IMG/VR virus record: IMGVR_UViG_2734482570_000004
Strand: one strand, 5' to 3'
Length of the DNA stretch: 4,675 bases
Source of the DNA: a virus
Lineage: Duplodnaviria; Heunggongvirae; Uroviricota; Caudoviricetes
The notes beneath the pieces were generated by a model. That model worked only from the letters and a program-made list of their open reading frames with translations. It made no database searches and had not been told where the DNA came from. How positions within the stretch are numbered: position 1 is the stretch's first letter; each line of letters starts with the position of its first letter. Position numbers and translations under genes: made by a program. Below are positions 3,687 through 3,935 of the stretch, piece by piece.

Positions 3687-3694
3687 GAGTGACC

Positions 3695-3722
3695 GGGCGG
3701 GGAGCTGATCCCATCCCCGCCC
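3695..3722. repeat. GC-rich perfect hairpin (9-bp stem, 10-nt loop) just after the stop codon at 3686
   Basis: GGGCGGGGA (3695..3703) pairs with TCCCCGCCC (3714..3722). No U-tract follows, so it is not a classical intrinsic terminator by itself. Confidence 0.5.
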
Positions 3723-3761
3723 ACCTCTGATGTGTCAGGCATCCTCAACGCACCCGCACTT

Positions 3762-3810
3762 AACCCGCCCATCGCTGTGATCTCTCAGCGTTTCGGCGGG
3801 TTTTTTGTTG
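3762..3810 (+). terminator. Rho-independent terminator (two-tier hairpin followed by T-tract)
   Basis: Outer stem AACCCGCC (3762..3769) pairs with GGCGGGTT (3795..3802). Inner stem CGCTG (3773..3777) pairs with CAGCG (3786..3790) around an 8-nt loop. Followed by TTTTTTGTTGTTT at 3801..3813. Confidence 0.5.
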
Positions 3811-3826
3811 TTTATTTCCGGTGAAT

Positions 3827-3854
3827 TTGATTCGCGCACCTTCGCAGATAGAAT
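3827..3854 (+). promoter_or_regulatory. Candidate sigma70 promoter for the downstream small ORFs (TTGATT-N16-TAGAAT)
   Basis: -35 TTGATT at 3827..3832, 16-nt spacer, -10 TAGAAT at 3849..3854. It sits just downstream of the terminator and about 80 nt upstream of ATG 3936. Confidence 0.4.
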
Positions 3855-3935
3855 CGACTCACTTAAGTAGCGCGCAGGGAGAAGAGGGATGGACCCCGAA
3901 CAGGGGAGAGCTATTTATCTGGAAGGATTCTGAAG

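Follow-up and report, generated by a model that had tools for sequence, protein, structure and literature searches.

A prophage hok mRNA 3' untranslated region probably followed by the promoter and leader of rem in the nin-type region of a Rac/Qin-like lambdoid prophage

What lies between the last codons of one small gene and the start codon of the next one was the question raised by positions 3687-3935 of a 4,675-nucleotide (nt) stretch of caudoviral DNA (IMG/VR record IMGVR_UViG_2734482570_000004), which is called the window in the following and represents a nin-type region of a Rac/Qin-like lambdoid prophage of Escherichia coli. A first reading of the letters alone (the original prediction) had described this part as a GC-rich hairpin, a terminator and a fresh promoter with a leader, which together mark a single cargo unit inserted into a phage operon. 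Our comparative analysis revealed that positions 3687-3806 are the 3' untranslated region (UTR) of the mRNA of a prophage Hok/Gef type I toxin (hok/sok) and that this hok half is a textbook case. Taken as a whole, the stretch is with high probability the 3' UTR of the hok mRNA followed by the promoter and leader of the gene rem, so that two independent transcription units meet here. The coordinates of all features are collected in Table 1.

The original prediction had overlooked that the gene upstream of the stretch is a hok toxin gene, which is partly hidden under a run of masked positions (N mask). The visible translation reads ...VTALVTRKDLCEVRIRTGQTEVAVFVDYESRK and is followed by the stop codon TAA at 3684-3686. 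In L001 (FDAARGOS_944), a near-identical relative with a single mismatch to window positions 3587-4568 (at 4388, outside of 3687-3935) and with 99.5-99.9% identity to the window in the flanks of the mask, the equivalent coding sequence (CDS) is annotated as hokD, ends at the position corresponding to window 3686 and belongs to the Hok/Gef toxins of the hok/sok family (PF01848 HOK_GEF, E = 4e-23). L001 also contains a hok 5' leader with the Sok target, as the hok/sok leader model RF01794 matches positions 3775-3950 with 117 bits (gathering score 59, E = 2e-27); in the window the mask covers the corresponding stretch. The hok mRNA was taken to begin 7 nt past the hok -10 element. As a side observation, a mok-like upstream ATG (L001 3888) is in frame with hok and opens a 70-amino-acid (aa) open reading frame (ORF; 3888-4100), and the record of the Rac phage annotates mok in another frame.

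For the comparison of the hok 3' region we used 80 IMG/VR loci encoding close Hok relatives. All 80 loci share the same order after the stop codon, which is a GC hairpin followed by a near-invariant stretch of about 40 nt (ACCUCUGAUGUGUCAGGCAUCCUCAACGCACCCGCACUUAA in the window type). In most of them a terminator of the form AACCCGC-UUCG-GCGGGUU-U5-6 comes next, and the homology to the hok locus ends there. The window type, represented by L001, L003 and L006, is distinguished by five extra bases in the loop of the hairpin and by a 23-nt insertion in the loop of the terminator.

The second element missed by the original prediction is fbi (here CCUCAACGCACCC), the sequence that in the fold-back model, as restated for hok of plasmid R1 (PMC9841398), pairs with the start of the hok mRNA. 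Its partner tac (GGGUGCUUGAGG) is masked in the window and is found at L001 3775-3786. In the minimum free energy (MFE) structure of the full 446-nt mRNA all 12 pairs between tac and fbi are formed with one bulge (z = -8.4), and the spacer between hairpin 1 and fbi pairs with an upstream segment of the hok mRNA. The tac/fbi pairing, with 11-12 of the 12 pairs, was recovered in 37 of 40 homologues that were folded independently. Furthermore, covariation was scored on an alignment of 43 homologues for three helices together (tac/fbi, hairpin 1 and the terminator), and the observed score was reached by none of 500 shuffles. The register of the helices is specific, with 94.5% of the alignment cells paired as compared with 44-54% when the partners were slid. 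For tac/fbi alone 99.8% of the cells are paired and the variants are G-U only. In the R1-like locus GGCGCUUGAGG is paired with CCUGAAGCGCC; both sides differ from the sequences found here, and the pairing is kept within the same global fold.

Hairpin 1 begins 9 nt past the TAA and was found with the perfect 9-bp stem given by the original prediction. The hairpin alone folds with -20.9 kcal/mol (z = -3.0), which identifies a stable stem-loop 3' of the stop codon. Folding of the 124-nt stretch 3687-3810, nearly the span for which the prediction itself had proposed this check, yielded -51.6 kcal/mol (z = -3.9), and none of 200 shuffles folded as well. Among the 43 homologues 96.7% of the cells of this stem are paired, with compensatory double changes between GC and AU at 2-3 stem pairs, and the R1-like hok carries an equivalent hairpin in the same position. 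Of 22 suppressor substitutions located in the 3' UTR of R1 hok, 19 disrupt CG pairs of this stem and abolish Tr-hok, and the loss of the processed RNA in the stem mutants was ascribed by the authors to 3'->5' exoribonucleases (PMC9841398). A matching RNA end is available from E. coli K-12, where Term-seq places the steady-state 3' ends of hokD at 1645082/1645081(-). These ends, which are classed as primary, lie between ...TCCCTCGCCACCTCTGA and the following T, 8-9 nt 3' of the orthologous hairpin, and correspond to window positions 3730/3731; the position convention of the Term-seq data was verified against SgrS. Because of the mutational data from R1 and the Term-seq end from K-12, we propose that hairpin 1 is the 3'-terminal protective stem-loop of the processed, that is truncated and translatable, hok mRNA, and the available data fit this assignment. 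Thus, the remark in the original prediction that the first hairpin, which is not followed by a U-tract, might be an RNA-processing site agrees well with both lines of evidence. By analogy, 3' processing would also take place at this exact locus.

The hok transcript is delimited by an intrinsic terminator (-22.8 kcal/mol, z = -5.3), and its description as a two-tier structure with a U-tract was confirmed down to the 8-bp outer stem, the 5-bp inner stem and the six U residues. A simple terminator scan missed it solely through the loop of more than 8 nt. The two-tier form is the usual hok terminator plus the 23-nt loop insertion, which is the source of the inner stem. For K-12, SMRT-Cappable-seq data show that the primary relB-relE-hokD transcripts of full length stop at 1645028, within the U-tract of the orthologous terminator. 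As the K-12 ends are located both at the terminator and just past the hairpin, it follows that transcription ends at the terminator and that the end of the processed RNA is marked by the hairpin, which is what the hok model requires.

Transferred to the prophage locus, the following sequence of events is likely. Transcription of hok from the masked promoter would end at the terminator, and in the full-length RNA the pairing of fbi with tac would, as in R1, lock the mRNA in a state that allows neither translation nor binding of the Sok antisense RNA. Slow trimming by 3'->5' exonucleases would then remove the terminator and fbi and would stall at about position 3730, a few nucleotides 3' of hairpin 1. 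The hairpin would then shield the refolded, translatable hok mRNA, which would be the target of Sok.

Two side observations concern the terminator. A direct repeat consisting of CCCGCCCACCTCTG (3716-3729) and CCCGCCCATCGCTG (3764-3777) is 86% identical, and the sequence just past hairpin 1 may have been duplicated and have diverged to give the 23-nt loop insertion. In addition, the same terminator (ACCCGCUUCGGCGGGUUUUUU plus GTTGTTTATTTTC) is also located behind unrelated genes upstream of rem (L005, L038, L057, L078 and L254), and it seems that this recurring terminator is a shared junction between interchangeable modules of these phages.

The gene that follows the stretch encodes a homologue of K-12 Rem. 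K-12 Rem was identified in 2023 as an antirepressor of DicA that derepresses the DicA-controlled promoter dicBp 165-fold; it had been found via its similarity to GfoA, a LexA-controlled antirepressor of Gifsy prophages, and the inducing condition is stated to be unknown (PMC10448788). The prophage of the near-identical relative encodes a 135-aa repressor with 62% identity to K-12 DicA (L287 11044-11451, minus strand), and therefore a Rem/DicA pair of antirepressor and repressor is present in this type of prophage. Rem would act as antirepressor of the DicA-type repressor of the prophage.

A sigma-70-type promoter in front of rem (P_rem) was already part of the original prediction. The site stands, as it is conserved across relatives, but the attribute "near-consensus" does not, since the match to the consensus is a moderate 9 of 12 positions. 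To analyze conservation, the upstream regions were fetched from IMG/VR via the Rem protein and are therefore unbiased with respect to the upstream DNA; a Rem search of genome contigs gave three loci. TTG and TAGAAT are invariant in the alignment of 38 rem upstream regions. Among 43 unique upstream regions the identity of TAGAAT is 1.00, compared with a mean pairwise identity of 0.43 in the spacer. Furthermore, in 10 of 11 unrelated spacer families TTG is 16 nt (nine of them) or 18 nt (the tenth) away from TAGAAT, which indicates that sigma-70 hexamers with a spacing of 16-18 nt are under selection. P_rem and the leader are also found where the upstream gene is not hok, as well as in front of a second rem-like gene type (MNDKELIAAL...). 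The support for P_rem comes from this comparison with related loci and not from the sequence match by itself; on this good comparative evidence we regard P_rem as a real sigma-70 promoter with a predicted start near 3861, about 7 nt past the -10 element. The core of the original prediction, a transcript boundary made up of a terminator and an independent promoter with a start near 3860, was in this way upheld. The promoter, which had been thought to drive cargo, serves a phage regulatory gene, and it does so in contexts without hok as well.

A further indication for a separate rem transcript comes from its 3' side. A hairpin (GUGCCA...UGGCAC, 4243-4268, z = -2.5) located 20 nt past the rem stop codon encloses the Shine-Dalgarno (SD) sequence and the ATG (4262) of the DUF1367 gene, and K-12 Term-seq data contain an abundant "orphan" 3' end 6 nt past the orthologous hairpin. 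This end just downstream of rem suggests a short rem transcript. Besides, the hok promoter (L001 3739-3768) and the rem promoter (window 3827-3854) share the hexamers TTGATT and TAGAAT, with spacers of 18 and 16 nt, respectively.

Regarding the control of rem, a search of the whole window for a LexA box with up to three mismatches to the 20-mer consensus returned nothing, and matches to CTGT-N8-ACAG with one mismatch occur in the window only at 665 and 1624 and not at P_rem. The leader is highly conserved: the identity of its purine-rich block is 0.97, compared with 0.83 at third codon positions of rem. P_rem has no LexA operator, and we infer that control is exerted at the highly conserved leader, after transcription. 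Positions 3861-3935 are probably the 5' UTR of rem and a region of post-transcriptional control, in which the purine-rich leader would hold the production of Rem in check. The predicted length of about 75 nt is close to the 80 nt of the original prediction. The GGGAGA-like repeats that had been pointed out there (3875-3888 and 3901-3910) did not survive the comparison; they were not returned by a repeat search, and the second copy is in relatives the 3' arm of the CCCC/GGGG hairpin. The loop of this hairpin varies and hence "CAGGGGAGAG" is not kept as a repeat.

How such control might work was approached from several sides. One can imagine that the rem mRNA is made constitutively from P_rem and is translated only when a host factor, for instance a CsrA-like binder of GGA motifs, a small RNA (sRNA) or a ribosome on the leader AUG, releases the leader, a scenario that we consider possible but doubtful. 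If it were true, lambdoid prophages of the DicA/Rem type would have an induction signal that is independent of the SOS response. The rem entry is absent from the part of the E. coli CsrA CLIP-seq (crosslinking and immunoprecipitation with sequencing) supplement that was available, which is uninformative either way. Within the prophage, a search for antisense or trans-acting partners of the leader returned only complementary 8-9-mers at chance level. The leader sequence was not found in published full texts, and the published sRNAs HnrS and the Pas sRNAs are located in late regions and not at the rem leader. An upstream ORF in the leader (AUG 3889, 14 codons, ending 2 nt ahead of the rem start codon) was rejected as a conserved peptide, as its length and frame vary (3-22 codons); by inspection it is fused in frame to rem in some variants.

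An alternative of which some parts fit is that the leader is a structured cis-regulatory RNA, such as a riboswitch, an attenuator, a thermometer or a nut-like boxB element, with a signal that switches rem on. The conservation of the purine block above the synonymous sites of rem is in line with this idea, as is the CCCC/GGGG stem, which is kept with variable loops that are in some cases boxB-like (CCCUGAAAAGGG); moreover, the fold reaches z = -2.7 when the first 75 nt of the CDS are added. However, the leader alone shows no unusual structure as compared with shuffles (z = +0.3), and Rfam 15 covariance models gave no match at E <= 1 across the whole window including 3687-3935. With RNAalifold the energy was only -5.2 kcal/mol and double changes were seen at a single pair, which is no convincing covariation. 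The long-range helix between UAGCGCGCA and the CDS, which appears in the one fold with the added codons, is broken in some variants and was not adopted, and a nut-like element was rejected since the boxB likeness is restricted to some variants and the boxA-like part is not conserved. Altogether, we consider a structured switch of this kind unlikely and prefer to regard the leader as a conserved 5' UTR of rem that is not unusually structured.

Several points weigh against the interpretation as hok 3' UTR plus rem transcription unit. First, on sequence alone P_rem is ordinary, with one promoter-like site found and 1.2 expected in 1.1 kb of shuffled sequence. Second, an entry for a transcription start site (TSS) of rem is absent near K-12 position 1644975 in those parts of the published TSS tables that were accessible, although such an absence is no evidence against a promoter. 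Third, neither a regulator nor a conserved fold of the leader was found by Rfam, folding, RNAalifold and complementarity searches. With regard to hok, the mask covers the 5' half of the locus with tac, the Sok target and the promoter, and an insertion or lesion is possible there given the difference between the 361-nt mask and the 259 nt in L001. Furthermore, the prophage copy is decaying, with frameshifts in a replication gene and an insertion sequence (IS) downstream. The tac/fbi helix has no double changes in the close homologues, and covariation for this helix rests on the comparison with R1. Finally, K-12 hokD reportedly lacks the hok 5' leader, and its 3' ends therefore inform about the hairpin and the terminator and not about the fold-back.

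The first two of these points are also what speaks for a model in which P_rem is fortuitous and rem is expressed only by antiterminated read-through of the hok terminator from the early rightward operon. Also in favor of this model, antiterminated polymerase is what usually transcribes the nin regions of lambdoid phages. The model is difficult to reconcile with the invariance of TTG and TAGAAT at an almost constant distance across 11 unrelated spacer families, and with the K-12 data, in which the primary relBEF transcripts stop at the terminator and yet an abundant 3' end is found just past rem. Expression of rem by read-through only is in our view quite improbable, and a functional P_rem explains these observations better.

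The reading put forward originally, in which a generic terminator and a fresh promoter mark one inserted cargo gene and hairpin 1 is a protein-binding site unrelated to the upstream gene, was largely refuted by the comparative data. It is correct that a terminator is followed by a promoter and that the hok cassette behaves like a mobile insert, with homology ending at the terminator; indeed, the hok/sok module is a moron-like insert with its own promoter, antisense RNA and terminator. But hairpin 1, spacer, fbi and terminator are inherited as a block with hok in more than 40 loci and in plasmid hok/sok, so that the first half of the supposed cargo unit is a specialised hok 3' UTR, and the downstream gene is a phage regulator that keeps its promoter and leader when hok is not its neighbor. 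As judged from these comparisons, a single cargo unit appears very unlikely. The remaining alternative, that hairpin 1 is an independent element such as a U-less terminator or a palindrome resembling repetitive extragenic palindromic (REP) sequences outside of hok regulation, takes up the GC-rich perfect palindrome in intergenic position, but it deserves hardly any credit in view of the same location in every hok locus examined including plasmid hok/sok, the compensatory changes, the missing U-tract and the primary K-12 transcripts that continue to the real terminator.

Table 1. Features at the hok-rem boundary, followed by the neighboring features of the window.
Feature	Position	Strand	Details
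hok-family toxin CDS, visible 3' end	3587-3686	+	last 32 codons; full CDS ~3531-3686, start under the mask
Hairpin 1	3695-3722	+	arms 3695-3703/3714-3722, 9 bp, 100% complementary, 10-nt loop, without U-tract
Spacer, hairpin 1 to fbi	3723-3742	+	near-invariant in 43 homologues
Predicted processed hok mRNA 3' end	3730-3731	+	by orthology to the K-12 Term-seq ends
fbi element CCUCAA(C)GCACCC	3743-3755	+	pairs with nt 1-12 of the hok mRNA (tac)
Intrinsic terminator of the hok transcript	3762-3806	+	outer stem 3762-3769/3795-3802 (8 bp), inner stem 3773-3777/3786-3790 (5 bp), U-tract 3801-3806 (U6)
P_rem, sigma-70-type	3827-3854	+	-35 TTGATT 3827-3832, 16-nt spacer, -10 TAGAAT 3849-3854
Predicted rem 5' UTR	~3861-3935	+	~75 nt, to ATG 3936
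Purine-rich block AGUAGCGCGCAGGGAGAAGAGGGAUGG	3866-3892	+	six GGA motifs, invariant AUG 3889-3891
Small hairpin CCCC/GGGG	3894-3897/3903-3906	+	stem kept, loop varies
rem SD GGAAGGA	3921-3927	+	
rem	3936-4223	+	95 aa; 68% identity to K-12 Rem, E = 2e-34
DnaC/IstB-like loader	770-1516		
DUF977 gene and zinc-ribbon ORF			between loader and QueH in listed gene order
QueH	2536-3201		
N-masked stretch	3226-3586		361 nt
Small ORF end (the hok-family CDS above), ...LVTRKDLCEVRIRTGQTEVAVFVDYESRK and stop			after the N mask, followed by the stretch 3687-3935
DUF1367/NinB-like gene			downstream of the 95-aa ORF 3936-4223; ATG 4262

Concerning the genomic context, window positions 3587-4230 match two E. 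coli genomes with 100% identity, one of which is that of L001. The mask of the window is longer by 102 nt than the 259 nt found at the same place in L001 (3742-4000), which may mean that the hok 5' region of this copy contains some 102 additional nt or that the length of the mask is unfaithful. Relative to L001, two extra A residues in a poly-A run (292-293) and a 10-bp deletion at about 430 (TCCCCCTAAA) are found in the gene ahead of the DnaC-like loader, and as a consequence this gene is split into the ORFs 61-324 and 494-763. At the other end, the last part of the window (4569-4675) leaves the match to L001 inside the DUF1367/NinB-like gene, between ...GAGCAAT and TGAGGTGTACTGGCAATAGCGGACAC, and resembles an IS3-family terminal repeat, with the C-terminus of the transposase on the minus strand. 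The same IS end is found 63 nt further downstream in L004, a relative from Shigella flexneri. The split ORFs together with the IS insertion indicate that the prophage is decaying. The nin region also contains a gene for the epoxyqueuosine reductase QueH (PF02677, E = 2e-65) preceded by about 150 nt of non-coding DNA that contains GC-rich palindromes (span of the whole feature 2368-3201), in which the Rfam scan found no preQ1 or other riboswitch.

Among the known systems, hok/sok of plasmid R1 (parB) shares with the prophage locus the order of the elements after the stop codon, the pairing of the 5' and 3' ends, the GC hairpin at the processing stop and the PF01848 domain. The two Hok proteins are 49% identical over 39 aa. 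R1 hok is plasmid-borne and its hairpin has a loop of 3-4 nt, whereas the locus described here is part of a prophage nin region, has a 10-nt hairpin loop and carries the 23-nt insertion in the terminator loop. The hok half is therefore a member of the known hok mRNA family and the terminator-loop insertion is a small variant, which shows that a terminator with such an insertion is viable. It also adds a case from a prophage where all 3' UTR elements known from the classic fold-back and processing pathway of hok can be identified.

The hokD-rem region of the K-12 prophage Qin is orthologous throughout, including hairpin 1, fbi, the terminator, the promoter (TTGAAG-18-TAGAAT), the leader and rem. 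It differs in that hokD is fused behind relBE according to the annotation, the terminator has a tetraloop and the promoter spacer is 18 nt long. Unlike K-12 hokD, the relative L001 keeps the full hok/sok 5' part. This orthology ties public 3'-end maps of K-12 to the hok mechanism, with full-length ends at the terminator and a steady-state end past the hairpin.

Another prophage-borne hok/sok system is hokW-sokW of the Stx2 prophage Sp5 of E. coli O157:H7 Sakai. The VT2-Sakai hit has about 89% DNA identity over window positions 3587-3765, from the final 100 nt of hok through the 3' UTR to where the terminator begins. Northern blots of hokW revealed shorter RNAs of unknown origin (PMC8621323). 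In contrast to the locus analyzed here, the sequence past the terminator is unrelated and rem is missing there.

The rem half resembles the antirepressor units of the Gifsy prophages of Salmonella (gfoA and relatives), in which a short repressor that cannot be cleaved is inactivated by a small antirepressor expressed from its own promoter (PMC10448788). If the leader is the control point of rem, this would account for how prophages with Rem, along with the toxic dicBF operon, are turned on independently of the SOS response. Unlike the LexA-controlled Gifsy units, P_rem does not carry the defining LexA box and is followed instead by a conserved purine-rich leader, and this LexA-independent promoter together with its leader are the obvious places to look for the control of rem.

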